16,274 nt of DNA from an uncultured Acidobacteriota bacterium (GCA_964617125.1 CAZTVS010000108.1:1-16274), one strand, 5' to 3'. Counted from the stretch's first letter, positions 1,839 to 14,883 are shown. Translations and numbers: made by a program. The notes: a model not told the origin generated them from the sequence alone.

Positions 1839-3464
1839 TCAGTAGAGCTGTTCGGACTTGGGCACATACCATCTGATCAGGTTGTGGGATATTCCGGCGG
1901 GAGCCGGCTCAACACCCCGAACACGGGCACTTACCACCGGCAAGGCGTCGGGAACGTACAGGAAGGTATAGGGCTGCTCATCGGCAAGTATTTCCTGAAT
2001 GCGATAGTAGGCACGCTTGCGTTTTTTGATGTCAAAGGTACTCCGCCCCTCCACAAGCAACCGATCAACCTCGTCATTCTTGAAACCGATGAAATTCAGT
2101 TCGCCCGGCTTGGTCTTGCTGGAATGCCAGACGTCAAACATGTCAGGGTCGAGAGATGTGGTCCATCCAAGTAACACCACATCAAAATTGCCCTTGTCAA
2201 CGAACTCCTTCAGAAATGCGGCCCATTCCACGACACGGATCTTGACATCAACACCCACGTATCTGAGACGTTGCTGGATGATCTGCGCCGTCAGGAGACG
2301 CTGCTGGTTACCCTGGTTGGTCAGGATGGTGAAGGAAAAGGGTCTCCCCCCCTTAACCAGAATCCCCTCACCGTTTCTCTCCCTCCATCCGGCCCGGGCC
2401 AGCAACTGCATGGCGCGTCTTGGATCGTATGGAATGTCTTTGATTTTCGGGTTGAACGCCCAGCGGCCCGGGGGAATGGGCCCATAGGCCTTGCACCCCA
2501 TTCCGAACAGCACGCCGTGAATCAGTTCATCCTTGTTGATGGCGGCAGTGATCGCCTGACGGACTAATTTCTCTTTGAACAGCGGATGCCGGAGATTGTA
2601 CCCCATGTAGACATAGCTTGAAGATGAGTAGCGATATTTATTGAATCGCGCGGCAAACTGCCGGGAGATCGTCTGGCGCATGTACTGGACCGGGGTCAGG
2701 TTCATCAGATCGATCGAGCCGGCCTTGAGCTCCATGTACATGGTTGATAGATCAGGGATAATTCTGTAGACGTAGCGCGCTATGTAGGGGCGCCCCTCGA
2801 AATAATCGGGATTCGCCTCCAGCACGATCTTCTGCATGGGAACCCACTCCCTGAACCGGTAGGGGCCCGTCCCCACCGGTTTCCGGGCCAGAGGGCTCTT
2901 GGTAATGTCCTTCCCTTCCAGCAGGTGAGCCGGTAGAATACTCGTTCCCCAGGAGGCCAGGGCCGGCGCGAAGGGCCTGGCATAGGTCACGATGACGGTG
3001 TGGTCGTCGGGAGCGGACACTCCCTTGACCTGCTTGAAATCCTCGGAATAGGCGGTGGGAGTTCCGGGATCGATGACGACTCTGTAGGTATACAACACAT
3101 CGCGGGACGTAAACGGAGCGCCGTCGTGCCATTTCACCCCCCGGCGCAGTTTGAAGGTTATTTTGAGCCCGTCGGGGGAAACGGAAAAAGATTCAGCCAG
3201 ATCGCAGACCAGCTTCAGGTTCTTGTCGTATTTGACCAGACCGTTATAGATGAGTGACGACACCTCATGGGAGGATGCATCGGTGGCAAGAATGGGAATC
3301 AGGGTGGACGCCTCACCGATCGTACCTTCCACGATGGAATCGCCGTAAACCGGCTTTTCTCTCTTATCGACGGGACGGGAAACCGGCGAAGAGTTCCGGC
3401 TGCACGCGGCAACCAGCAGAAAGGCGACGAGCAGCAGAGGCATGAACCAGTAATGACGGTTCAT
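1839..3464 (-). CDS. Solute-binding lipoprotein of ABC transporter family 5 (OppA/DppA/NikA-like)
   Basis: The 541-aa ORF starts with a signal peptide and lipobox (LLVAAC). Its length and conserved blocks (KWHDGAPFTSRDV, NPDYFEGRP) are typical of cluster-C/family-5 periplasmic binding proteins. Its start overlaps the stop of the upstream TPR gene (ATGA). Confidence 0.85.
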   Translation of the reverse strand: MNRHYWFMPLLLVAFLLVAACSRNSSPVSRPVDKREKPVYGDSIVEGTIGEASTLIPILATDASSHEVSSLIYNGLVKYDKNLKLVCDLAESFSVSPDGLKITFKLRRGVKWHDGAPFTSRDVLYTYRVVIDPGTPTAYSEDFKQVKGVSAPDDHTVIVTYARPFAPALASWGTSILPAHLLEGKDITKSPLARKPVGTGPYRFREWVPMQKIVLEANPDYFEGRPYIARYVYRIIPDLSTMYMELKAGSIDLMNLTPVQYMRQTISRQFAARFNKYRYSSSSYVYMGYNLRHPLFKEKLVRQAITAAINKDELIHGVLFGMGCKAYGPIPPGRWAFNPKIKDIPYDPRRAMQLLARAGWRERNGEGILVKGGRPFSFTILTNQGNQQRLLTAQIIQQRLRYVGVDVKIRVVEWAAFLKEFVDKGNFDVVLLGWTTSLDPDMFDVWHSSKTKPGELNFIGFKNDEVDRLLVEGRSTFDIKKRKRAYYRIQEILADEQPYTFLYVPDALPVVSARVRGVEPAPAGISHNLIRWYVPKSEQLY

Positions 3465-5155
3465 CGCTCACCCTGCTCCCCTTTGAGTCTGCGGACCTTG
3501 TCGGCCAGTTCCTTGCGTTCTGGTTCCAGTTCCAGCGCTTTTTTATAGACCCTGAGCGCTTTCTTGTTCTCACGCCGGGCAACATAGGCGTCTCCGAGAT
3601 GTTCGAGGATGGTGGAATCATCCTCCGCGAGCCGGGTGGCCTCCTCGAGGTTACTGACTGCCTCGTCAAACCGTTTCATCTTGAAGTACACCCATCCCAG
3701 GCTGTCCAGAATGAAACCGTCATCGGGTCGGATTTCAACGGCCAGTTTGAGGTATTTCAGCGCTTCGTCCAGGTTGATTCCCATCTCCGCATACGAATAC
3801 CCGAGATAGTTCAGCGCCTGGGCATCCCTTGGATTGATGCTCAGCACCTTTTTCATCCGTTCTATGGATGCCTGCCTCTTCCCGAGCGTATCATACAGCA
3901 CGCCGATACGAAAATGCAGGCGCGGTTCATCCGCAAAACGCTTCTCTGAGGCGAGAAGCAGTTCCAGGGCGGTCCCCGCCTTGCCGGCAGCTTCATAAAC
4001 CGTGGAGAGATTGAGGTAAAGCTCAATCTGATCGGGATTTGCGGCAATGGCATTTTTCAGAACATCGATGGCCTCGTCGTTCCTGCCCTTTTCCGAAAGA
4101 ACAAAGGCAATGTGGCCGATCGCATCGACATATACTGGGGAATCGGCGGGAATCTTTCTGAATTCGGTGTAAGCCCGGTCCAGTTCGCCCTTCTCCTCAT
4201 ATGCAACCCCAAGATAGAGCCTGATTGGATGGGCAGTCGGGTCCTTCTCCAGCAGATTGGTAAAGACGGAGATCGCCTCATCGTACTGTTCCAGTTCAAG
4301 ATGAATCAGTCCGATCTTCCGCATGGTTTCCACGCCGTTCAGACCTGATTCCGCGGACTGGTTGAGGTATTCCAGGGCTTCTTCCAGCCTGCGCTGCTGT
4401 ATGAGCAGCTGGATGAGACGCTGCTGAACCGCAATTCGGCTCTCATCTTCCTCAAGAAGACGCTGGTAGATTTCTATGGCCCTGTCATACTCACCAAGCG
4501 CCTCATGGGATACCGCCATGTCGATGGAAGCCTGGGTAAACTCCGGCCTGAGTTCCACTGTTTTCCTGTAGTATCCAACGGCATCACGGAAAAGCTTCAT
4601 CTGGCTGTAAGTCCGGCCGAGATAGTAATATCCCAGGACGGATTCGGGGTTAAGTTTCACCAGATCCTTGAGCGTATTGACCGCATCCTCGTACTCGAAC
4701 AGGCGGGTCAGTGAAACGGATAGATGCAGATATGCATCCTCCTTGCTGGGGTCAAGTTTTATCGCTGTACGGAGATACCCCACAGCCTCGCTGTCCTTGC
4801 CGGACGAGGCCATGATGACACCTGCCATGACGTACGGCTCGCGGTAGGCGGGATCGAGCTTGATCGCCCGGTTGACGTACTCCAGACCCTCCTGAACCTG
4901 CCCGATTTTGATCTTGTTCTCAGCCATGGCCGTATAGAGAAAAGCCGAGGACGGGTCCAGGTCAATGGCTTCCCTCAGATTGCTCAGGGCACCGACGAAG
5001 TCGCCTTCAATACTGGAAAGACGCGCACGGGAGTACAGGTAGAGCGCACGGGAACGCGCATCATGAATCTGGGGATAGGTGGAGGCATGGTCACCGACGG
5101 TGGCGCATGATGCAAGCGCCGCGGCGCACAGGAGCATGCTCAAAATAAATTTCAT
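3461..5155 (-). CDS. Tetratricopeptide-repeat (TPR) lipoprotein
   Basis: The 564-aa ORF has an N-terminal signal peptide with lipobox (ALASC). Roughly 12 or more 34-residue TPR units are visible, with recurring A..Y....G.Y.EA...Y..AL.L.P motifs. It is translationally coupled to the downstream SBP gene. Confidence 0.85.
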   Translation of the reverse strand: MKFILSMLLCAAALASCATVGDHASTYPQIHDARSRALYLYSRARLSSIEGDFVGALSNLREAIDLDPSSAFLYTAMAENKIKIGQVQEGLEYVNRAIKLDPAYREPYVMAGVIMASSGKDSEAVGYLRTAIKLDPSKEDAYLHLSVSLTRLFEYEDAVNTLKDLVKLNPESVLGYYYLGRTYSQMKLFRDAVGYYRKTVELRPEFTQASIDMAVSHEALGEYDRAIEIYQRLLEEDESRIAVQQRLIQLLIQQRRLEEALEYLNQSAESGLNGVETMRKIGLIHLELEQYDEAISVFTNLLEKDPTAHPIRLYLGVAYEEKGELDRAYTEFRKIPADSPVYVDAIGHIAFVLSEKGRNDEAIDVLKNAIAANPDQIELYLNLSTVYEAAGKAGTALELLLASEKRFADEPRLHFRIGVLYDTLGKRQASIERMKKVLSINPRDAQALNYLGYSYAEMGINLDEALKYLKLAVEIRPDDGFILDSLGWVYFKMKRFDEAVSNLEEATRLAEDDSTILEHLGDAYVARRENKKALRVYKKALELEPERKELADKVRRLKGEQGER

Positions 5156-5244
5156 TGTAAAATAGGTCCGTTTCTTTAAAAATTGTAAAAAAAACTAGCA
5201 TGAATCCATACATGCGTCAAATGAATATCAATGACTCCAACACC

Positions 5245-5273
5245 TTGCTACGGAGGCGGTTTGATGTTAATCT
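5245..5273 (+). promoter_or_regulatory. Candidate sigma70-type promoter for the 5295-11236 operon
   Basis: TTGCTA (5245-5250), a 17-nt spacer, then TAATCT (5268-5273) with an upstream TG, about 20 nt before the ATG at 5295. It lies in an AT-rich divergent intergenic region. This is motif-level evidence only. Confidence 0.3.
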
Positions 5274-5294
5274 TTAGAGCAATAATGGGGCTCC

Positions 5295-6857
5295 ATGATG
5301 ATACGAAGCGCTCTAAAATCACTGCTGAAACCGGAAGCATATCCTGAGCCTACCACCAGGGTCGACCTGGTGCAAACTCATGTCTCATGGATATTTCTCA
5401 CCGACACCCATGCCTACAAGATCAAGAAACCGGTTGATTTCGGTTTTCTCAATTTTTCAAGTATAGATCGACGTAGATTCTATTGCAACGAAGAGGTAAA
5501 GTACAATAGGCGTCTTTGCCCCGACATGTACGTGGGAGTCGTGGAACTGCGCAAGACTCCCACGGGCGCCGGTTTTCTGGGAACCGGCCAGATAATAGAC
5601 TATGCGGTCAAAATGAAACGGCTTCCGGCGGAGGGAATGCTTGACCGTCTCATCGGAAACAACGCCGTGTCGGCAGCGGAGCTTCGGGCAGTTGCCCGGA
5701 TGATCGCCGATTTTCACCAGACAGCTCCGACATCGCCCGCCATCTCAGAGTACGGGGGCGTTGACCGCATCCTCCGCATTTGGACTGAAAACTTAGAACT
5801 GACTGTTCCCTTTGAGAGCAGCACCCTTCCGGCGACAGAACGGGAATTGATCAGGGAATGGGTATTCTCGTTCACGGAACGTAATGCCGGCCTGTTTGAA
5901 AGGAGAATCCGGAACGGTTTCATCCGTGAATGCGATGGCGATATCCACCTGGAGAACATCTGCCTGGTCAACGGCGCAATCTACATATTTGATTGCATAG
6001 AGTTCAGCGACCGCTTCCGCTGCTGCGATACCGCCTCGGATCTCGCATTCCTGCTCATGGACCTGGATTTTCACGGTCGCCGTGACCTGACCACGGAAGC
6101 CATGGCAGCCTATCTTGACTCTTCGGGCGATGAGGAGATGTTCGCCCTGCTGGATTTCTATAAGATCTACCGAGCCTTTGTGCGTGGAAAAGTTGAAAGC
6201 CTGAAGGCGATGGACATCGGCATCGACCAGCAGGCCCGCGCTGCGGCCACCCAGAAAGCCGTCAGGTATTTCAGGCTGGCGCGTGGTTATATCGAGCGGA
6301 CCAGGCTTCCGACCACCCTTTTCATAACATGCGGCCTGACGGGCTCCGGGAAAAGCACTCTTGCCGACCAACTCTCCTTCGAACTGGGAATCCCCGCTTT
6401 CAATTCCGATATCATCCGCAAACAGATGGCGGGGATCTCCCCTTTAACGCCGGCCCCTGCCGCTTTCGGTGAGGGAATTTACTCCCCGCAGGCCAATGAA
6501 CAGACCTACGACGAACTTCTGAGACTGGCTGAGCAGGAGATTTCGGCGAGCCGCTCGGTCATAATCGACGCCTGCTTCATCCGCAAAGCCGACCGCGCCA
6601 GGTTCGCGGCAGCGGCGCAGCGCTACGGAGCGCGTTTCGTAATCATGCATGTCTCGTGCAGTGAGGCGATCAACCGGCGCAGACTCAGCGCCCGCTCTGC
6701 GTCGGGCCGATCCGTATCGGACGGCAGGGCGGAAATATTCGGCGTTCAACGCCAGATGTTCGAACCACCGGAAACGGAAGAAGGCCGGATCATACCGGTC
6801 CGTACCGTAACGGCGCCATCAAGGCTTACCAGCATGGTATACGAAAGGCTGGCCTGA
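5295..6857 (+). CDS. Bifunctional kinase: N-terminal aminoglycoside-phosphotransferase-like (APH/protein-kinase-like fold) domain fused to a C-terminal P-loop kinase (AAA_33-like) domain
   Basis: The 520-aa ORF has an APH-type catalytic loop (CDGDIHLENI) and downstream IFDCIEFSDRF...DLAFLLMDLD in the N-terminal half. The C-terminal half has a Walker A motif (GLTGSGKST). The stop at 6857 lies 1 nt before the next ATG. Confidence 0.75.
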   Translation: MMIRSALKSLLKPEAYPEPTTRVDLVQTHVSWIFLTDTHAYKIKKPVDFGFLNFSSIDRRRFYCNEEVKYNRRLCPDMYVGVVELRKTPTGAGFLGTGQIIDYAVKMKRLPAEGMLDRLIGNNAVSAAELRAVARMIADFHQTAPTSPAISEYGGVDRILRIWTENLELTVPFESSTLPATERELIREWVFSFTERNAGLFERRIRNGFIRECDGDIHLENICLVNGAIYIFDCIEFSDRFRCCDTASDLAFLLMDLDFHGRRDLTTEAMAAYLDSSGDEEMFALLDFYKIYRAFVRGKVESLKAMDIGIDQQARAAATQKAVRYFRLARGYIERTRLPTTLFITCGLTGSGKSTLADQLSFELGIPAFNSDIIRKQMAGISPLTPAPAAFGEGIYSPQANEQTYDELLRLAEQEISASRSVIIDACFIRKADRARFAAAAQRYGARFVIMHVSCSEAINRRRLSARSASGRSVSDGRAEIFGVQRQMFEPPETEEGRIIPVRTVTAPSRLTSMVYERLA

Positions 6858-6858
6858 T

Positions 6859-7116
6859 ATGCTGAAGCGACTGCGCCTGATGCTGCTGCATCGTCTGCAA
6901 TTGCGGGAATCATGGATTATCTTCTTCATACTGGGTCTTATCCTGATCAATTTTCCCTTTCTCGGTATCTTCAATAAATCCGAAACGATCCTGGGCATTC
7001 CGCTCCTTTTCCTGTACCTTTTCGTCGGCTGGGGAACATCCATATCCGTGATCTACCTTTTTACCCTGGCTTCCGGCAGCACGGACGCAGCTTCCACGGA
7101 GAAACATCAGCCGTGA
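6859..7116 (+). CDS. Small two-helix membrane protein, DUF4212-like putative small subunit of a sodium:solute symporter
   Basis: The 85-aa ORF has two hydrophobic helices (IIFFILGLILINFPFLGIF and LLFLYLFVGWGTSISVIYLF). It lies immediately upstream of the SSS-domain gene and is translationally coupled to it through a GTGA overlap. This is the usual arrangement for small subunits of SSS transporters. Confidence 0.55.
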   Translation: MLKRLRLMLLHRLQLRESWIIFFILGLILINFPFLGIFNKSETILGIPLLFLYLFVGWGTSISVIYLFTLASGSTDAASTEKHQP

Positions 7117-10100
7117 CCAACGGCCTTATCCAGACCTCGCTGATTACCATGCTCTATACCCTGCTGATCTTCCTGATCGCCTGGTATGCCCATTACCGCA
7201 AAGAAAACGGCCGGAGTATGGTCGCCAATCCGTACATCTATACCCTCTCCATCGCGGTCTACTGCACGGCCTGGACGTTCTACGGCAGTGTCGGCAAGGC
7301 GGCGACAACCGGAATCGATTATCTCCCGATCTATCTGGGTCCTTCCCTCACGGCATTCGCATGGATATTCCTGCTGCGACGCATGATAAGGATCAGCAAA
7401 GAGAACAACGTAACATCCATTGCCGACTTCATCAGCCTGCGCTACGGCAAGTCTCCCTGGCTGGGAGCGCTCGTAACCGTTCTGGCGATTCTGGGCATCA
7501 TGCCCTACATCGCCCTTCAGATCAAAGCGGTGTCCACCAGCTTCCATCTCTTGAGCGGAAACGTTTTTCCGCCTGATTCGATCCCGTTTTCACGCGCCGC
7601 GTACGGCGCCTCGCTCCCTAGCGGCCTCCTCCTTTCCCTGATCCTGTCGCTGTTCGCCGCCATCTTCGGAGCCCGCAGGCTGGTTTCTTCCGAACGTCAC
7701 GAGGGACTCATCGCGGCGATCGCGCTGGAATCCGTGGTGAAACTGGTGTGCCTGCTGGGTGTGGGTATTTTTGTCACGTACTGCCTTAACGACGGATTTG
7801 TTGACATTTTCATGAAGTTTCGACAGTTTAACCCCGTTGACTTCAACCGACTGATGACCATCGGCGCGAGCCGGTTCCCCGGTGACACGGTTCCCCCATT
7901 CACCATGCTGTTCATGTCCATGGGGGCAATAATGCTCTACCCCCGCCAGTTCCACGTCATGGTGATCGAAAACTCCACAGAACGCCATATAGAAAGGGCC
8001 ATGTGGCTCTTTCCGCTCTATCTCTTCCTGATCAACCTTTTCATCATTCCCATTGCCCTGAGCGGCATAATGATCACCGGCACTGCCGATAATGCCGATT
8101 TCTTCGTCCTGAACATTCCGCTCCTGACCGGGCATCGCACCATCGCGACATTGGCGTATCTGGGCGGACTCGCCGCGTCGGCAGGCATGGTCGTGGTTGA
8201 ATCCATCACCATATCCACCATGCTTCTCAACTACATCTTCATGCCGGTCATAGTGCGGCTGAAGCCGCGCAGCTGGTTCCCCCATCTGCTGATCAACCTC
8301 AAACGGTTCGGCATCTTTCTGGTCATCTTCCTGGGATACCTCTACTACCTCTTTGCCGGCAACGCCTTCACCCTCTTCAAACTGGGAATGTTTTCCTTCT
8401 CGGCCATAATCCAGTTCATGCCGGCCGTGCTGGGGGGGGTCTACTGGAAACGCGCCAATCGTACGGGAGCGATCATCGGCATTCTCTCCGGCCTGATCAC
8501 ATGGCTGTACACACTCTTTCTGCCGTCTCTGGGAAACGTCCGCGGGATTCGGTTGGACGCCCTCAACAACGGCCCCTTCAATATATCCCTTCTCAAACCC
8601 ACCGCTCTCTTCGGCCTTACCGGCATGGACCCGTGGAGCCACTGCCTGTTCTGGAGCATGCTTTTCAACATCGGCGGTTATATCGCGTTTTCGATTCTGC
8701 TGACTCAGGATGAGCAGGAGAGGAACCATGTCAGAAAGTTCATCGGCACTTTCGAGACGGAACGTCGCAAGCGCCTCCATGGAGAGACGAGTCGGCTTTC
8801 CAAACCCGTTACCATAACCCAGTTCACCTCCCTGCTGGCAAAATTTATCGGGGACCAGGAAGCAGAGCATGCCATCAACGGCTATATCGGAAACCGGAGC
8901 ATCGACAAGGGCGGCCACATCTCCGAATTCGAGCTTCCGAACCTGAAGCGCTTCACGGAAAAAACCCTTGCCGGATCGGTTGGAGCGGCTGCCGCCGGCG
9001 CCATCGTGGACAGTTATCTGTCGGACATGGGCTCACGCATGGAACTGGTCTACGACATCTTCAGCAACGTGAGGAGTTCCCTGGACCAGAGCCGTGAGGC
9101 CCTGTTTGTCCGCCTCAAGGCCTCGGAGATCATCAATCGCACCCTGGATCTGCGCATCATCATGGATGACCTTCTCGAACTCCTCATGAGGGAATTCAAG
9201 CTCGATCTGGCAATGATCTTCCTCCGGGACAATCAGGGCAATCTCACACTGGCCAGCGCCAGAGACAGAGAAGATAACGCCGCGCCGGCGGGGCAGTGGC
9301 TGAATGAATGCAGGGATGTGTGCGAGATGGTGGCAAACAGAGGCAAATCGTACGTCATCAACGACACATCAACCGATATCCAGGCGGAAGCTTTCCGCTT
9401 TGACTTCCTGGCCAGGGCCGTGTCATACGCCTACATCCCCATTCTGCGGGAGGGAGAGAAATCTCCGGGGATTCTTGCCGTTTTCTCAAATGCAATCCCG
9501 GGCCTCTTTACTGAAGAATTCATCGGACTTCTGGAAAGCCTTGCCGGCCAGCTTGCGCAGGCCATCGCCATCACGCGCGAAATTGAGGCCAAGGAACGGG
9601 AGCGGACCCAGAAAGAGCATGCCCTCATGCAGAACGCCCGTATCAGGCGGGACATGGAGATAGCCCAGCAGATACAGCTCTCCCTTCTTCCGGCAGCACC
9701 GCCACAACTTTTCGGGGTGGAGCTTGAGGGACGCTGCATCTCCGCGGCCCATGTTGGAGGGGACTACTACGATTTTTTCCGGCGTGACGACAACACCGTC
9801 GATATTTTGATTGCGGATGTCTCGGGACACAGTGTGGGAGCGGCGCTAATCATGGCTGAGGCGCGGACCCTGCTCAAACCCCAGATCAACTCGTCCCACA
9901 GCGCTTGCGCCATCCTCAAGCTGCTGAACAACCAGCTTTACGACGACCTCACCCGGGCGGAACTGTTCATCACCATGTTCTACGCCCAATACAACTCCGC
10001 CACCGGACGTCTCTCCTACGCGAATGCAGGCCACAACCGCCCGCTCGTCTGTCGCGAGGGAGAGGGGGACTGCATCCAGCTGGATGCCGAAGGGCTCATA

Positions 10101-10370
10101 ATCGGCGTCAGGCCGACCGTTGTTTTTGAAGAGCGAAGCATAGAACTCGTGCGGGGTGATGTGGTATTATTCTATACCGACGGCCTGATCGAAGCCACAA
10201 ATCCCGGGGGGGAACAGTTCGGAATTCAGAGAATCTGTTCAAGGTTGAGGGAATTTCGCGATCTCACAGCAAAGGAGATCATAGACTCATTGTACTCATC
10301 AGTGTCGGAGTATACCGGTCTTGGCGCCTATCAGGACGACATCTCCCTGGTGATACTGAAGATTCTCTGA
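7113..10370 (+). CDS. Membrane sensor phosphatase: sodium:solute-symporter (SSS) domain, GAF domain and PP2C/SpoIIE-type serine phosphatase (RsbU-like)
   Basis: The 1085-aa ORF starts with a GTG at 7113. Residues 1-520 are polytopic membrane and SSS-like (YGSVGKAA..GIDYLPIYLG, multiple TM helices). Residues 660-830 form a GAF-like fold (LDLRIIMDDLLELL...LDLAMIFLRD). The C-terminus carries PP2C motifs (GGDYYDFF, ILIADVSGHSVGAAL, FYTDGLIEA, DDISLVIL). Confidence 0.85.
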   Translation: MTNGLIQTSLITMLYTLLIFLIAWYAHYRKENGRSMVANPYIYTLSIAVYCTAWTFYGSVGKAATTGIDYLPIYLGPSLTAFAWIFLLRRMIRISKENNVTSIADFISLRYGKSPWLGALVTVLAILGIMPYIALQIKAVSTSFHLLSGNVFPPDSIPFSRAAYGASLPSGLLLSLILSLFAAIFGARRLVSSERHEGLIAAIALESVVKLVCLLGVGIFVTYCLNDGFVDIFMKFRQFNPVDFNRLMTIGASRFPGDTVPPFTMLFMSMGAIMLYPRQFHVMVIENSTERHIERAMWLFPLYLFLINLFIIPIALSGIMITGTADNADFFVLNIPLLTGHRTIATLAYLGGLAASAGMVVVESITISTMLLNYIFMPVIVRLKPRSWFPHLLINLKRFGIFLVIFLGYLYYLFAGNAFTLFKLGMFSFSAIIQFMPAVLGGVYWKRANRTGAIIGILSGLITWLYTLFLPSLGNVRGIRLDALNNGPFNISLLKPTALFGLTGMDPWSHCLFWSMLFNIGGYIAFSILLTQDEQERNHVRKFIGTFETERRKRLHGETSRLSKPVTITQFTSLLAKFIGDQEAEHAINGYIGNRSIDKGGHISEFELPNLKRFTEKTLAGSVGAAAAGAIVDSYLSDMGSRMELVYDIFSNVRSSLDQSREALFVRLKASEIINRTLDLRIIMDDLLELLMREFKLDLAMIFLRDNQGNLTLASARDREDNAAPAGQWLNECRDVCEMVANRGKSYVINDTSTDIQAEAFRFDFLARAVSYAYIPILREGEKSPGILAVFSNAIPGLFTEEFIGLLESLAGQLAQAIAITREIEAKERERTQKEHALMQNARIRRDMEIAQQIQLSLLPAAPPQLFGVELEGRCISAAHVGGDYYDFFRRDDNTVDILIADVSGHSVGAALIMAEARTLLKPQINSSHSACAILKLLNNQLYDDLTRAELFITMFYAQYNSATGRLSYANAGHNRPLVCREGEGDCIQLDAEGLIIGVRPTVVFEERSIELVRGDVVLFYTDGLIEATNPGGEQFGIQRICSRLREFRDLTAKEIIDSLYSSVSEYTGLGAYQDDISLVILKIL

Positions 10371-10411
10371 GCTTCTTTTATCCGTAGCAAATGATCGGAT
10401 CAACCATCTGT

Positions 10412-10420
10412 TGTTATAAT
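10412..10420 (+). promoter_or_regulatory. Candidate extended -10 element (TGtTATAAT), possible internal promoter for the STAS/kinase genes
   Basis: A perfect TATAAT at 10415-10420 is preceded by TGt (10412-10414). It sits 23 nt upstream of the ATG at 10443 and 40 nt downstream of the phosphatase stop. No good -35 is present, which is typical of extended -10 promoters. Confidence 0.35.
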
Positions 10421-10442
10421 GAACTGCCATAAAGGAGTGAAC

Positions 10443-10778
10443 ATGAACCTGAAGATTGAAGCGGTCGGCAGCCGCATGATTATCGCCGTACAGGAAGAGA
10501 GGCTTGACGCCCACAACTCCGACGAGTTGAAGACCGAAATGAACAGGCTTTTCTCCGAGGGGGCGAAGGATCTGATCCTAGACCTCAAGGATGTGCGTTT
10601 CATTGACAGTTCAGGGCTGGGAGTACTGGTTTCCGGATTCAAGAACGCCTCGACCCGCCAGGGTTCTCTCAAGCTCGCGGGACTGCAGACGCAGGTGAGA
10701 TCGATGTTTGAACTGACCCGGCTGCACCGCGTCTTTGACATCTTCCAGACAACTGACGAGGCGCTGGACAGTTATTAA
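10443..10778 (+). CDS. STAS-domain anti-sigma-factor antagonist (RsbV/SpoIIAA-like)
   Basis: The 111-aa protein starts at the ATG at 10443, which has a strong SD (AAAGGAG, 10431-10437). The track ORF start at 10419 lies inside the -10 box. It carries the conserved phosphorylatable serine motif (FIDSSGLGVLV) and has typical STAS length. Its stop overlaps the next start (TAATG). Confidence 0.85.
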   Translation: MNLKIEAVGSRMIIAVQEERLDAHNSDELKTEMNRLFSEGAKDLILDLKDVRFIDSSGLGVLVSGFKNASTRQGSLKLAGLQTQVRSMFELTRLHRVFDIFQTTDEALDSY

Positions 10779-11236
10779 TGAATAGTTTCAGTCTGAGCGG
10801 GCAATTCATGAAAAATGAAATCGAGATCAACATCAGAGTACCCAATCAGACGCGCTACCTGAGCCTTATCGGAAGGATCGGCGAATACATGGCGCGGGAA
10901 GCCTGCAGGCTGCCGGATGACAGGGAGTCCCTGGCATTCAACATGAACGTGGTGCTTACGGAGGCCATGACCAACGCCATAAAACATGCAAACGCGGCAG
11001 ACCCGAACAAGGAGGTCCAGATCTGCATCAGGATATCAAAGGACGAGCTTGATATCATGGTATACGACAGCGGCCAGGGATTCGATCTCAATGCGATTCC
11101 CTGGCCGAAGTTCGATTCCGACTGCCTGGATGAAGCCGGCCGAGGAATCTTCATCATCAGATCCCTGATGGACTCGGTGGTATACGAGAAGGCGGATGGC
11201 GGCAACGTACTGAGGATGAAGAAGGGCCTGAGGTAA
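10778..11236 (+). CDS. Anti-sigma regulatory factor / serine protein kinase (RsbW/SpoIIAB-like, GHKL HATPase_c)
   Basis: The 152-aa ORF has an N-box (EAMTNAIKHA), a G1 box (DSGQGFD) and a G2 box (GRGIFIIRSLMD). Its size and its position after a STAS gene are typical of partner-switching kinases. Confidence 0.8.
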   Translation: MNSFSLSGQFMKNEIEINIRVPNQTRYLSLIGRIGEYMAREACRLPDDRESLAFNMNVVLTEAMTNAIKHANAADPNKEVQICIRISKDELDIMVYDSGQGFDLNAIPWPKFDSDCLDEAGRGIFIIRSLMDSVVYEKADGGNVLRMKKGLR

Positions 11237-11252
11237 GCCGACGACGACCGGG

Positions 11253-12278
11253 CTATGGCTCCACCGGCCCGTACTTCTCCTCTGCGGCCCTTACGATCTG
11301 CCTGACCATTGAGGCGGACAGAGCCCTGGTCATTTCACTCATGGCGCCCATGGTTGCCTTGGTGAATTTCACGGCCGGCGCGGTGCGCATGAACGCTACA
11401 TACTCACGCAACTCGTTATCGGTAAAATCCCTGAAGGTATAGGTAAGACCGATCCGTACCTGATTGCGCAGCTGCGCATCCATCTCACCCCTGTGGCGTC
11501 TGATCTGTTTGAGCATCTCTCCCCGGGCCCGCCTCTTTTCCGCGCTCCGTGCGGGAATCGCACTCATTGCCCCGAAAATCGCATCACCCATTATCTGTCG
11601 CGCCATCTGCGTACTCCTTGAGGCATCGTCCAGTTCGCGGATCAGGGTCCGTCTCCGGGGAGGCGGCGGGTTCCCCTCCATCTCGTTCAGTATCCGCTGC
11701 GCCGCCTCGGGCGACATGACGTCAACAGCGGTTTCCGCGTCGCGGACCTTGATCCCGAGGGGGCTCTTCATCCACGCCAGAATCGCCTCCAGGGTCCCGT
11801 TGTCCAGATGTGAACGGTAATAGGCGCGGATTCTGCGCTTGGCCTTCTGCGGATCGAACCCGGCCAGCGCCTGGGAAAAGACGTCGCCCAGTTCCCTGTT
11901 GTCTCCGATCGATGACATGGCGCCTGCCTGGAACTGCAGGAGAAACTTGTCGATCTGCTGGTCGAATTTCGACCCGGCTAGAATCTGTTCCACGAGGTCG
12001 CTGGAGGCGGCTCCGGCGGCACTGACATCTTTTGCATCGAGTATCGCGGTATCGGCGAACTTAGCTATCCTGTTGAACTTCTGCGTCTTCTCCAGCAACA
12101 CATCATCTTCAGGATACTCGAACAGGGTCTGTGATCTGCTGAGATAGACCCTGTCCCCCTCCATCCAGACCGAGTTGCCCGTCTCCCGTGAACCGTCCTT
12201 CAGATAAACGGTGGCGCCAAATGCCGCGCCAGCCATGCAGAGGGTTACAAGAACCGCCATGAGGAATCTAAGACCCAT
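11253..12278 (-). CDS. Secreted protein with two DUF2059-like domains
   Basis: The start is taken at the ATG at 12278, which has a strong SD (AAGGAG) 7 nt upstream. This gives a signal peptide (MGLRFLMAVLVTLCMAGAAFGA). Two copies of the DUF2059-type motif are present (AILAWMKSPLGIKV and YVAFMRTAPAVKF). An in-frame ATG at 12326 lacks an SD. Confidence 0.6.
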   Translation of the reverse strand: MGLRFLMAVLVTLCMAGAAFGATVYLKDGSRETGNSVWMEGDRVYLSRSQTLFEYPEDDVLLEKTQKFNRIAKFADTAILDAKDVSAAGAASSDLVEQILAGSKFDQQIDKFLLQFQAGAMSSIGDNRELGDVFSQALAGFDPQKAKRRIRAYYRSHLDNGTLEAILAWMKSPLGIKVRDAETAVDVMSPEAAQRILNEMEGNPPPPRRRTLIRELDDASRSTQMARQIMGDAIFGAMSAIPARSAEKRRARGEMLKQIRRHRGEMDAQLRNQVRIGLTYTFRDFTDNELREYVAFMRTAPAVKFTKATMGAMSEMTRALSASMVRQIVRAAEEKYGPVEP

Positions 12279-12360
12279 GAGTGTCTCCTTACCAAGGGAT
12301 TGGATATTGACTGAAATGTGACGCACTGTTCATGAAAATCGGCGAAAACCAGGATGTTTA

Positions 12361-14883
12361 TTACGATTTTGAGGCCGAATCCAATGACTGCGAATCATTC
12401 TTTTTCAAAAGAGCGGGGAGATCGACACCCGGCAGCAGCCTGGTCAACGTTCCCATCAGTCCGTCCGCGGCGCTGGCGCCACCCGTTACCAGTACATCCG
12501 GCACGATCTTGATCCGGCCGCTTTCGATGGCCGCGGACAGCAGCTCCACGATCCTGATCTGCCTGATCGCCTCTTCGCCGATCGCCTCCTGCTGCTTGTT
12601 GTAGGCCTGGGCGGTTGCCTCGCCGATGGCCGCGATCTTGGATGCCTCGCCATCGCCGATAGCCCTCAGCCTCTTCCCCTCGCCCGTCCCTTCCAGCGCC
12701 TTGGCTTCCGCCGTACCCTCCGCAAGAGTGATCATCTCGGTCTTCTTCTGGGTGGCCACTTTCACCGCGATCTCCGATGCCACCAGCGTGGGCTGCTGGT
12801 CGGCAGTGGCGCGCATCTTCTCCATCTCGGTACGCTCGGCCTGCGACCTCTGCTCCATCCGGTACATCTCCTGCTGCTGCTCGGCGATGATGCGCTTGGT
12901 CTGGGTCTGCATGAGATCCTCCGGGAGCTTGATCTGGCAGATCAGTACCGACACGCACTCCACGTGGTAGCGCTCCAGATCGGCCCGGGCGCGGCTCTCG
13001 GCCTTGGCCTGCTCCTCGGAACGGCTCTGCAGGAAGTTCATGGCGGAGGCCGTGGAGGCCTGGTTCCTGAAGGAGGAGTCGATCATGGGATGGATCACGT
13101 GCTGGATGAGGTTGTCGATGGAACCGACCTTGGCGACCATGTAGGGCGCCTGATCGGGGCGGACCCGGATAACCACCTTGACCGCCACCTGGATCGGGAA
13201 GCCATCCTTGGAGATGACGGAAAGCTGATCGAAACGGGTGTCATCCTGATCATCCCAGTCGATGGTGATGTTGGTGGTGTCGATGATATAGACCATGAAG
13301 GCCCGGCGGTTGAGGTAATAGCGCCCCGGTCCGGCCACCTCCTCCTGGATGCCACGGTACCCCTTGGGAACGACGTACTTCTCCTTCCCCTCTTCCACGG
13401 AAGCCCCGAGTTGAGTCGAGCCGAGCCGTTTCTTCATCTCCTCCGTCGGATCATCTCCCACGTTGGAAACTATGACTCCGACCTGGCCGCGTTCGATAAC
13501 GGCCACGTTGTCCACTTCGACGCTGAACATGAAGTGGTTGATGTAGTAGGTCCCGGGTCTCAGCACGTCGAGCTGCGGGCCGCGCTGTCCCATGTTGGCA
13601 AGGAACGATGAACCGTTCTGGTAATCGTTGTGGCCGCTGACCGGCGAGGCCACGTACTCGCGCTCGGGAAGCGGAATGCCGTCCAGAGCGGTGACCAGGC
13701 CGACCTTGTTGGCTTCGACAACAATGGCGGGCGCGATCTGGATCTGAAACAGGTTGAGGTTGATGCGGTACGTGCCGGGAAGGAGCACATCGATCTGCGG
13801 CCCCTTCTGGCCGCCGTTCTTCAGGAATGCCTCGCCATTCTCGTAGTTCGAGTGTCCGCCCACGCTCTGGGCCAGGAGCCGGCCCATGGGGATGGGAGCA
13901 CCGTCCTGGGCGGTGACCATCCCCACCTCCCCCTTGGCGATCACCACCGCCCCGGCGTTAGTAACCTTGAACAGGTTGGGATGGATGCGGTAGACGCCGG
14001 GCGGCAGGATCTCGGTCTGGGGGCCCTTCTGGCCGCCGTTCCTGATAAAGGCCTCGCCGTCCTGAAAGGCGTTATGGCCGGAAACGACGGTGGCAAATAT
14101 GCGGCCGGCCGGAATTGCCGCGCCGTCGGCGGACTCGACCAGTCCGATCTCGTTTTCCCCGATCCTGGTGGCGGTGCTCTTGGTAACCTTGAACAGGTAG
14201 GGATTGATGCGGTAGTTGCCCGGCGGGATGATCTCGATCTGGGGCCCCTTCTGGCCGCCGTTTCTGATGAATGCCTCGCCGTTCTGGAAGGATGAGTGGC
14301 CTTCCACGGCCCGGGCGAAAATCTTCCCCTCGGGAATTGCCACCCCATCCACCGACTCCACAATTCCGATCTCGAAATCCTTGATCTCGGTCACCCTGCC
14401 CTTGGTGAGCTTGAAGAGGTACGGGTTGATGCGGTATTTTCCGGGAGGAAGCACTTCTATCTGGGGCCCCTTCTGGCCGCCGTTACCGATGAATGCCTCG
14501 CCGTCCTGAAAGGCATTGTGTCCGGCCACGACCTCGGCAAAGATCCTCCCCGGCGGAATCGGCGAGCCGTCCACCGATTCGATCATCCCGATCTCGTTTT
14601 CCAGGATTTCGGTAAAATAGCTCTTGGTGGCCTGGTAGATGAAAGGGATCAGGAAGTGCAGGCCGGGTCCCAGGGTCCGCGCCTGGATGCCGACCTCGTC
14701 ACCCATGGCCACGACCCGCCCTTGGGGCATCTTTTTGCCGAACCATCTCCGCTCGATCAGCGCTATTTCCCCACCGCCCACAATCACGATGGAGTTCCAG
14801 AGCAGAAAGCAGAAGATGGCAAAGGCCAGGATATAGTAGTAGTGGTGGCCGAGCCAGGAGAGCAGGGTAAAGGGGTCGTACAT
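12361..14883 (-). CDS. Flotillin/SPFH (band-7, YqiK/FloT-like) membrane protein with an N-terminal expansion of tandem 74-aa repeats
   Basis: The 840-aa ORF has an SD (GGGAGGA) 6 nt upstream of its ATG and an N-terminal TM helix. The C-terminal third is a flotillin-type coiled coil with Ala/Glu-rich EA repeats (AEQQQEMYRMEQRSQAERTEMEKMRA...AEGTAEAKALEGTGEGKRLRAIG). The core is SPFH-like. Five exact 74-aa repeats occupy residues 97-466. Confidence 0.85.
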   Translation of the reverse strand: MYDPFTLLSWLGHHYYYILAFAIFCFLLWNSIVIVGGGEIALIERRWFGKKMPQGRVVAMGDEVGIQARTLGPGLHFLIPFIYQATKSYFTEILENEIGMIESVDGSPIPPGRIFAEVVAGHNAFQDGEAFIGNGGQKGPQIEVLPPGKYRINPYLFKLTKGRVTEIKDFEIGIVESVDGVAIPEGKIFARAVEGHSSFQNGEAFIRNGGQKGPQIEIIPPGNYRINPYLFKVTKSTATRIGENEIGLVESADGAAIPAGRIFATVVSGHNAFQDGEAFIRNGGQKGPQTEILPPGVYRIHPNLFKVTNAGAVVIAKGEVGMVTAQDGAPIPMGRLLAQSVGGHSNYENGEAFLKNGGQKGPQIDVLLPGTYRINLNLFQIQIAPAIVVEANKVGLVTALDGIPLPEREYVASPVSGHNDYQNGSSFLANMGQRGPQLDVLRPGTYYINHFMFSVEVDNVAVIERGQVGVIVSNVGDDPTEEMKKRLGSTQLGASVEEGKEKYVVPKGYRGIQEEVAGPGRYYLNRRAFMVYIIDTTNITIDWDDQDDTRFDQLSVISKDGFPIQVAVKVVIRVRPDQAPYMVAKVGSIDNLIQHVIHPMIDSSFRNQASTASAMNFLQSRSEEQAKAESRARADLERYHVECVSVLICQIKLPEDLMQTQTKRIIAEQQQEMYRMEQRSQAERTEMEKMRATADQQPTLVASEIAVKVATQKKTEMITLAEGTAEAKALEGTGEGKRLRAIGDGEASKIAAIGEATAQAYNKQQEAIGEEAIRQIRIVELLSAAIESGRIKIVPDVLVTGGASAADGLMGTLTRLLPGVDLPALLKKNDSQSLDSASKS
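13486..14595 (-). repeat. Intragenic tandem repeat, 5 in-frame copies of 222 bp (74 aa), inside the flotillin gene
   Basis: The protein repeats R1-R5 each have the form EIGxVESxDGxxIPxGRIFAxxVxGHNAFQDGEAFIRNGGQKGPQIEILPPGxYRINPYLFKxT. All copies are exactly 74 aa with no indels. DNA blocks such as ggccccttctggccgccgtt recur at about 13800, 14024, 14239 and 14463. Partial copies flank the array on both sides. Confidence 0.85.

Follow-up and report, generated by a model that had tools for sequence, protein, structure and literature searches.

An operon that may link a transporter-like SLC5 sensor to a partner switch without an adjacent sigma factor gene

To our knowledge, SLC5-STAC transceptors are known experimentally only as histidine kinases. 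Among them, CbrA is associated with histidine and carbon/nitrogen balance, CrbS with the acetate switch and RpuS with pyruvate. Partner switches of the RsbU-V-W and SpoIIE-AA-AB type form a second family, in which genes for a PPM phosphatase (N-terminal sensor, then helical linker), a STAS protein bearing the DSxG serine and a GHKL serine kinase follow one another in this order. Here we describe a five-gene operon that shares this gene order and these components with the second family, yet has no sigma factor gene and carries a phosphatase that appears to be an integral membrane transceptor. The operon lies on a whole contig of 16,274 bp from an uncultured Acidobacteriota bacterium (GCA_964617125.1, CAZTVS010000108.1:1-16274), hereafter referred to as the window. 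All five genes are on the plus strand and were present where an earlier note on this DNA had placed them: open reading frames (ORFs) for a dual kinase of 520 amino acids (aa; positions 5295-6857), a small membrane protein of 85 aa (6859-7116), a sensor phosphatase of 1085 aa (7113-10370), a STAS protein of 111 aa (10443-10778) and an RsbW-like kinase (10778-11236, 152 aa, or 142 aa when counted from an ATG at 10808). We read these genes as a transceptor-fed partner switch encoded in one operon, and give this reading a probability of roughly 0.6.

Partner switches without an adjacent sigma factor gene include Chlamydia RsbU/V/W, Vibrio SypE/SypA, and the Pseudomonas systems SiaABCD and HsbR/HsbA, all of which follow the same logic as the operon described here. 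Chlamydia RsbU is likewise membrane-bound with a metabolite-binding sensor domain, and the window's PP2C domain has SiaA among its PDB matches, but none of these switches has an SLC5 domain or a companion peptide. In Actinobacteria, SSS+GAF+PP2C_SIG(+HATPase_c) proteins have been remarked upon in a domain census, although none was studied (PMC7918813); they resemble the window protein in joining an SSS domain to GAF and a PP2C of the sigma-regulating type, and carry a fused HATPase_c domain where the kinase here is encoded by a separate gene. Related proteins are named "sodium/solute symporter serine/threonine phosphatase" in databases, and our literature search found no study of an SLC5-PP2C partner-switch combination. 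All parts of the operon are known and their combination is unstudied; because it has neither a histidine kinase output nor a linked sigma factor gene, it fits neither the SLC5-STAC family nor the partner-switch family strictly.

The sensor phosphatase is the central component of this operon. The earlier note had described it as an RsbU-like PP2C phosphatase, and the PP2C domain indeed held up in profile searches. However, this catalytic part occupies only the last 200 of the 1085 residues, and an N-terminal SLC5 sensor domain with 13 transmembrane (TM) helices (positions 7113-8699, plus strand, residues 1-529) had been missed. Residues 4-484 matched PDB entry 10ed_A (E value 3.5e-74, 34% identity over 456 columns), a 606-aa chain deposited as "histidine kinase", which we infer to be the SLC5-STAC construct of Pseudomonas putida CbrA from a 2026 cryo-EM preprint (PMC13022988). 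Weak NCBIfam matches over residues 83-470 pointed to the monocarboxylate permease MctP (3e-9) and the VC_2705 symporter family (4.8e-7). An AlphaFold2 (AF2) model of residues 1-680, with a predicted local distance difference test (pLDDT) score of 77.9, contained 13 TM helices, of which TM2 and TM7 are broken, and its best Foldseek matches were all SLC5 proteins (SGLT1/2, NIS, SMCT1, SiaT and vSGLT). Thirteen TM helices have also been reported for the SLC5 domain of SLC5-STAC sensors (PMC5715377). Moreover, residue K210 aligned with K196 in the Na2 site of CbrA and was invariant in 37 family members; in CbrA, this lysine goes together with proton- rather than sodium-coupled operation (PMC13022988).

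The AF2 model places TM13 at residues 507-529, followed by a linker helix parallel to the membrane (534-559), a poorly ordered stretch, and then a four-helix bundle (8814-9026, plus strand, residues 568-638) built from two hairpins (568-592 and 608-638) with a 15-residue loop between them. We call this bundle STAC-like by its modelled layout, which is that of CbrA and of the STAC definition. Its hairpins carry a motif, F..G...A ... E..LAG..G...A, that was invariant between the PP2C-type and the histidine kinase-type families (residues F578, G580, A584, E616, L619, A620, G624 and A628). A long helix (643-679) runs from the bundle into a GAF domain (9144-9569, plus strand, residues 678-819; GAF_2 4.6e-14, GAF 6.8e-8), and a helical linker then leads to the PP2C/PPM domain of the SpoIIE family (9786-10364, plus strand, residues 892-1084). 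The latter matched Pfam SpoIIE with an E value of 3.8e-48 over profile positions 1-191 of 192, and its closest solved structures were those of Pseudomonas aeruginosa RssB (3es2, 2.7e-16), Rv1364c (4e-14), SiaA (6k4e) and SpoIIE (5mqh). The metal-binding motifs GGDYYD, ADVSGHS, YTDGL and QDDIS were intact in the translation. HisKA and HATPase domains are absent from the protein, which has GAF and SpoIIE in their stead, and no response regulator was found among the window proteins with Pfam or NCBIfam.

Conservation of the operon was assessed in 67 Geobacterales genome loci, about 57 of which were full (individual loci are given by L number where they have to be told apart). The five-gene order recurred in approximately 53 of the 57 full loci, which by this sequence comparison is far beyond chance. 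In every sufficiently long Geobacterales locus, the genes for the small protein, the sensor phosphatase, the STAS protein and the kinase followed each other in the same order. The earlier note had asked whether the kinase and the small ORF always travel with the phosphatase: the small ORF did so in every full locus, and the dual kinase was missing from four. Desulfuromonas versatilis carries the whole cluster, dual kinase included.

In D. versatilis, a single in-frame TAG interrupts the sensor gene where the GAF region begins (L084, 8065-8090; ...ILEIFK*QFKFDL..., the asterisk marking the stop), and the gene is accordingly annotated as encoding two proteins, one SLC5-STAC (688 aa) and one GAF-PP2C (374 aa). 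The TAG may be a nonsense mutation or a sequencing error, or else a codon that is read through. A natural split of sensor and phosphatase was considered and rejected, the feature being a single in-frame TAG and not a modular split.

The small membrane protein had been regarded in the earlier note as an extra component of the switch. It is a real membrane ORF, with a basic N-terminus and two hydrophobic helices in a 2-TM hairpin, but rather than a stray addition it appears to be a companion of the SLC5 sensor domain. Its gene overlaps that of the sensor by 4 nucleotides (nt) in approximately 53 of the 57 related loci, and an unannotated ORF of 66-91 aa was found directly upstream of all seven related SLC5 histidine kinases examined. 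The products of these seven kinase-linked ORFs are homologous to the window protein (37-47% identity) and share with it the pattern LG...P.L..F(N/R)......G.P.L..Y.F..W; F23, G26, P33, F38, P48 and W58 were invariant. Searching the library with the 85-aa sequence alone returned 516 cluster representatives with E<=1e-3, every one a small protein. The window protein belongs to no Pfam family and did not match DUF3311, DUF485 or DUF4212, which are small partners of SSS transporters; among 150 relatives, DUF3311 matched eight (best E value 0.00079), and matches to DUF485 and DUF4212 were sporadic and weak. Judged by this distribution, the small protein is a conserved companion of the sensor-domain clade, whatever the output domain.

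This arrangement recalls CbrX and CbrA of Pseudomonas, where cbrX is a small gene overlapping the start of cbrA and CbrX is a two-helix hairpin bound to the SLC5 domain of CbrA (PMC13022988). By its gene position, the small protein stands in the same genomic relation to the sensor as CbrX does to CbrA, and by analogy it may likewise bind the SLC5 domain. Both systems further share a homologous 13-TM SLC5 domain, the Na2-site lysine and, in the AF2 model, a linker helix followed by a four-helix bundle below the membrane. They differ in output, CbrA having a PAS-DHp-CA output and a response regulator where the window protein has GAF-PP2C without a response regulator, and no sequence likeness between CbrX and the window peptide was detectable among PDB entries, 10ed included.

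The closest relatives of the sensor domain outside the phosphatases were SLC5-HisKA-HATPase kinases of about 915 aa from Betaproteobacteria, Alphaproteobacteria, Calditrichota and others, 47-50% identical to it in the SLC5 domain. These proteins, together with the CrbS/MxtR-like kinases, share with the window protein the pocket, the motif of the STAC region and the small upstream ORF, but signal by HisKA/HATPase to a response regulator and are without the dual kinase. The residues of the histidine pocket of CbrA were mapped onto the window protein via the alignment to 10ed_A. Y51, W55, Y75, F406 and K196 of CbrA are kept (Y50, W54, Y74, F429 and K210 here), while four of the eight pocket residues are changed, namely S53T, A56T, F71Y and F248S (T52, T55, Y70 and S269 here). 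Because of these four changes, the ligand is probably not histidine. At the same time, nine positions (Y50, T52, W54, T55, F/Y70, Y74, K210, S269 and F429) were the same or nearly so in 13 PP2C-type and 24 kinase-type proteins. Since the pocket is shared by both groups, the phosphatase-type and kinase-type sensors most likely read the same ligand.

The genomic neighbourhoods of the kinase-type relatives offer a further hint as to this ligand. At the seven kinase loci examined (L076-L078 and L080-L083), an adjacent REC gene and a PAS/RNase_T exonuclease gene were always present, a gene for a DUF294/CBS nucleotidyltransferase protein was found at six, and genes for a two-subunit DUF4212+SSF symporter at five (with the large subunit at L076 deduced from a 2.2-kb uncalled gap). 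The acetyl-CoA synthetase gene acs and a LuxR-type regulator gene occurred at one locus each. Genes for the exonuclease, the DUF294 protein and the DUF4212+SSF symporter, as well as acs, thus adjoin the kinase relatives, but none of them lies near the window operon. In the described acetate switch, CrbS/CrbR controls acs and actP (PMC5715377). Because the kinase relatives sit in such CrbS-like acetate-utilisation neighbourhoods, our best guess for the input is a carboxylate nutrient signal, with acetate as the first candidate. The input of this operon had been listed as unknown in the earlier note; the CbrA/CrbS-type SLC5 domain now largely explains what kind of input it is, the ligand itself being a guess.

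The STAS protein, previously proposed to be RsbV-like, matched Pfam STAS (2.2e-21) and scored 83.1 bits against TIGR00377 (anti-sigma factor antagonist), above the cut-off of 53.45. Its residue S56, in the sequence DSSGLG, aligned with the serine of the DS(A/T)GLG motif in TM1442, RsbV and SpoIIAA and is predicted to be the phosphorylatable serine. The RsbW-like kinase, also as proposed, matched Pfam HATPase_c_2 (2e-25) and displays an N box (EAMTNAIKHA), a G1 box (DSGQGF) and a G2 box (GRGIF). Its best PDB match was RsbW (6m36_A, 3.7e-12), followed by SpoIIAB. The RsbW equivalog models (3e-18 and 1e-16) and the SpoIIAB model (1.2e-13) were all hit below their cut-offs. Profile searches hence uphold a STAS and a GHKL protein at 10443-11236.

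Taken together, we favour the following course of events. The operon would be transcribed from a promoter upstream of the dual kinase gene, and the sensor would be a membrane complex of the 1085-aa protein (SLC5, STAC-like bundle, helix, GAF, linker and PP2C) with the 85-aa two-helix peptide, which would be coupled to it in translation and would play the role that CbrX has for CbrA. A small nutrient solute occupying or crossing the SLC5 pocket, most likely the one sensed by the CrbS-like histidine kinases that are tied genetically to acetate utilisation, would change the conformation of the STAC/helix/GAF stack, and the GAF domain may supply a cytoplasmic ligand input. The helical linker would pass this change on and so set PP2C activity in the manner of RsbU-type phosphatases, for which such a mechanism has been put forward, as has a swapping of sensor modules between phosphatases, kinases and cyclases (PMC12143880). 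PP2C would then dephosphorylate the STAS protein at Ser56, a residue that the RsbW-like kinase would phosphorylate again, with unphosphorylated STAS either binding the kinase, thereby displacing the kinase's other partner, or acting on a target itself. This target would be encoded away from the operon, and the dual kinase would be made in step with the sensor as a dispensable accessory. Our inferences in this scheme are the complex of peptide and SLC5 domain, what kind of ligand is bound, which way the regulation runs and all steps after the STAS protein.

Several points weigh against such a transceptor-fed switch. With a profile of residues ~567-652, built from 12 proteins of the PP2C and kinase types, no STAC structure was retrieved from the PDB and no family from Pfam, and PDB searches for a likeness to CbrX, with the single sequence and with profiles of 28 and 150 sequences, returned nothing credible. 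The choice of acetate is a guess by association, the ligand of CrbS-type sensors not having been shown biochemically. No target of the switch was found, and the scheme assigns the dual kinase no function. Finally, the SLC5 domain of CbrA is apparently not essential for signalling and the stimulus may be cytoplasmic (PMC9100948, PMC7918813), so that the SLC5 domain may modulate the signal rather than sense it.

This last point leads to a different reading of the sensor, in which the SLC5 domain mainly transports or anchors the protein in the membrane, and the phosphatase answers a cytoplasmic signal via the GAF domain only. The SLC5 domain would then serve localisation or be regulated itself. 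A soluble CbrA variant without its SLC5 domain still signals, possibly in answer to an intracellular cue (PMC7918813, PMC9100948), and CbrA does transport histidine (PMC13022988). We nevertheless hold this reading to be distinctly unlikely for the window protein: both the pocket residues and the motif at the tip of the STAC-like region are conserved across the two output types, and the survival of the SLC5-STAC unit through a change of output domain argues that it carries information.

The transceptor-fed switch that we prefer leaves the output to be considered. The earlier note had called this output unknown and had seen no sigma factor gene downstream. Both statements stand, in that no target was found beside the operon, and no sigma factor gene was present in the window or within the next 10 kb, which a longer contig of identical sequence (L079) covers. 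Downstream of the approximately 57 orthologous loci there was none either, except in Pelobacter propionicus DSM 2379, where an unrelated unit (L085, 14647-16386) encodes an LTXXQ/Metal_resist protein, an ECF sigma factor of 210 aa and a 181-aa ORF. This unit starts 0.5 kb past the RsbW-like gene on the same strand and was absent from all other loci examined. Its ECF sigma factor (0.5-0.9 kb downstream) was considered as the cognate one and rejected, having its own LTXXQ protein and downstream ORF and lacking conservation.

These searches bear on whether the operon is a conventional anti-sigma switch in which the RsbW-like protein sequesters a sigma factor encoded elsewhere, for example a group-3 factor such as FliA or a stress sigma factor. 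Transcription would then be under its control, as with RsbUVW or with Chlamydia RsbW and sigma66. The best family and structure matches of the kinase are indeed anti-sigma factors (RsbW and SpoIIAB) and the STAS protein scores above the superfamily cut-off for anti-sigma antagonists; moreover, Chlamydia provides a precedent for an unlinked sigma target (PMC4552016, PMC11619594). However, the scores of the kinase against the RsbW and SpoIIAB equivalogs lie far below the cut-offs, the sole sigma factor nearby is part of the separate and non-conserved P. propionicus unit, and the negative result for the window, the 10 kb beyond it and the ~57 loci covers linked sigma factors and not whole genomes. 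On balance, we consider an unlinked sigma factor rather unlikely.

It is plausible that switches without a sigma factor control non-transcriptional outputs, as the earlier note had suggested. The STAS protein might then itself be the output, as HsbA and SypA are, with the RsbW-like protein serving solely to phosphorylate it. In its phosphorylated or its unphosphorylated form, STAS would bind an effector other than a sigma factor, be it an enzyme, a diguanylate cyclase or a transporter. The operon encodes no partner for the kinase, and sigma-less precedents exist in SypE/SypA and in STAS-only proteins (PMC8256260, PMC10120452). Against this, no candidate effector is conserved beside the operon, and the explanation that we prefer also allows a STAS protein acting on a target directly. 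We see a separate STAS output as somewhat unlikely. The outputs of the described sigma-less switches (sigma66 in Chlamydia, the syp polysaccharide locus, the diguanylate cyclase SiaD and FlgM) have no counterpart near the window operon.

The description of the dual kinase as an APH/P-loop protein proved right by fold and, for the P-loop half, by profile as well. The C-terminal ~180 aa matched Pfam AAA_33 over the full profile (E value 2.4e-28), whereas the N-terminal half was weak by sequence, with a Pfam APH match below threshold (E value 0.0054). In an AF2 model (pLDDT 86.6), Foldseek matched the N-terminal ~340 aa to choline/ethanolamine kinase (3dxq), methylthioribose (MTR) kinase (2pul) and capreomycin phosphotransferase, the APH-type matches 3dxq, 2pul, 8i85/7f0a and 3fi8 spanning ~320-370 alignment columns. 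For the C-terminal part, the matches were PNKP (polynucleotide kinase), gluconate kinase and adenylate kinase. An APH/choline-kinase fold of the N-terminal half is thus confirmed at the level of the model, and the nearest folds of the protein as a whole are small-molecule or nucleic-acid kinases and not protein kinases. In 25 orthologues, no variation was seen at the D-x4-N loop and metal-binding aspartate (D216/N221/D233), at the clustered lysines K42-45 or in the Walker A motif (G347-S354, with G347, G350, G352, K353 and S354).

Among the 54 loci reaching far enough upstream, about 50 carry the dual kinase gene, and in nearly all loci that have it, its stop codon lies -4 or +1 nt from the start of the small ORF. 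L036, L039, L042 and L047 lack the gene and keep the remainder of the operon intact, and it is absent beside all seven SLC5 histidine kinase relatives. A homologue search with the dual kinase gave Geobacterales orthologues for all of the best 120 matches, and our literature search for fusions of APH and AAA_33 yielded nothing relevant. From this gene distribution, we treat the dual kinase as a lineage-specific, dispensable accessory that is probably coupled translationally to the small ORF.

An integral role for the dual kinase, either as the regulated output of the switch or as the maker of a phosphorylated GAF ligand from the solute or a related metabolite, seems to us quite improbable. Such a role would agree with its being the only other conserved soluble protein of the operon, with the -4/+1 nt coupling, with its presence in approximately 50 of 54 loci and in D. 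versatilis, with the invariance of both catalytic sites, and with nearest folds that are small-molecule and polynucleotide kinases in place of protein kinases. It agrees poorly with the absence of the gene from the four loci named above and from all seven kinase-type relatives, and no substrate could be inferred for the protein. In its boldest form, which we regard as a long shot, flux of an acetate-type solute through the transceptor would set STAS phosphorylation, and the dual kinase would be held and released by the RsbW-like protein or would make the GAF ligand. If true, the operon would be a metabolic and not a transcriptional switch, and the first partner switch to take its input from a transporter and to act through a small-molecule kinase, in bacteria living on acetate.

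Returning to the transceptor-fed switch with the dual kinase as an accessory, the operon would represent an SLC5-type sensor unit that has moved, together with its companion peptide, onto a PP2C phosphatase feeding an RsbV/RsbW pair. As such, it would illustrate from nature how phosphatases, kinases and cyclases may swap sensor modules, as has been proposed, and would not be a new principle. The occurrence of a homologous peptide under two kinds of output supports the structure of the CbrX-CbrA complex, and suggests that the peptide belongs to the sensor and is no mere accident of translation. The physiology of Geobacterales centres on acetate and related carboxylates, and the operon offers a candidate carbon-sensing pathway in these bacteria that can be tested, with the phosphorylation state of the STAS protein as a simple read-out.

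The gene junctions of the operon were also inspected. The best-matching genome locus was 74% identical to the window, and that of P. propionicus 68%; the source of the window is a relative of Pelobacter, Oryzomonas and Geobacter. Between the dual kinase gene and the small ORF, the described junction of a stop codon, one nucleotide and an ATG was found as TGA-T-ATG at 6855-6861, and the GTGA overlap of the small ORF with the phosphatase gene was found at 7113-7116. The 72-nt gap between the phosphatase and STAS genes does contain the described -10 box (TATAAT, 10415-10420) and Shine-Dalgarno sequence (AAGGAG, 10432-10437), but neither the gap nor the TATAAT is conserved: the spacer measures 13-20 nt in most relatives and 54-128 nt in a few. 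A promoter scan of the gap called none, and an internal promoter at this position was rejected on these two grounds. The letters TAATG, read earlier as a coupling of the STAS and RsbW-like genes, are present at 10776-10780. However, the RsbW-like gene more likely starts at ATG 10808, 29 nt after the STAS gene, because this ATG is conserved in related loci and is called as the start on the identical contig of the Joint Genome Institute (JGI); the TAATG overlap is therefore probably incidental, without real coupling.

Upstream, the operon is separated from a divergent gene pair by an intergenic region (5156-5294), with the gene for a TPR protein on the minus strand to one side and the operon on the plus strand to the other. 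In an alignment of this region from 15 related loci, the blocks CTAGCAT, CGTCAAA, GAWTATCA and CTTGCG...TTTGATGnTA were kept. Most of these blocks can be read as two back-to-back sigma-70-like promoters, although a consensus promoter scan made no call at the blocks in 5156-5294. The GAWTATCA block is not explained by the promoter reading and could be a regulator site.

The divergent pair itself (1839-5155, minus strand) consists of genes for the 564-aa TPR protein and a 541-aa solute-binding protein of the SBP_bac_5 family, which overlap by 4 nt. Such a pair adjoins the operon in about half of the related loci, including that of P. propionicus; in D. versatilis, the SBP_bac_5 gene is kept and two unannotated ORFs occupy the place of the TPR gene. 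On the other side, the convergent gene noted earlier indeed ends at 11253, 16 nt past the stop codon of the kinase gene. No conserved partner was found downstream of the operon in related loci, where the recurrent neighbours, read from the sequence and not by Pfam, were a convergent NiFe-hydrogenase operon and genes for a rubrerythrin-like protein, an ABC-F protein and ppk. A search of the window with Rfam found no RNA element, and a defence system was set aside in view of the lack of any PADLOC match among seven proteins searched.

Two features are particular to this genome. The convergent genes downstream (11253-14883, minus strand) encode a 357-aa DUF2059 protein and an SPFH/Band_7 protein of unusual length (840 aa), a pair that does not stand beside the operon in the other loci. 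In addition, the divergent intergenic region shows a direct repeat, ATTGTAAAA, at positions 5154 and 5182, which is specific to the window.

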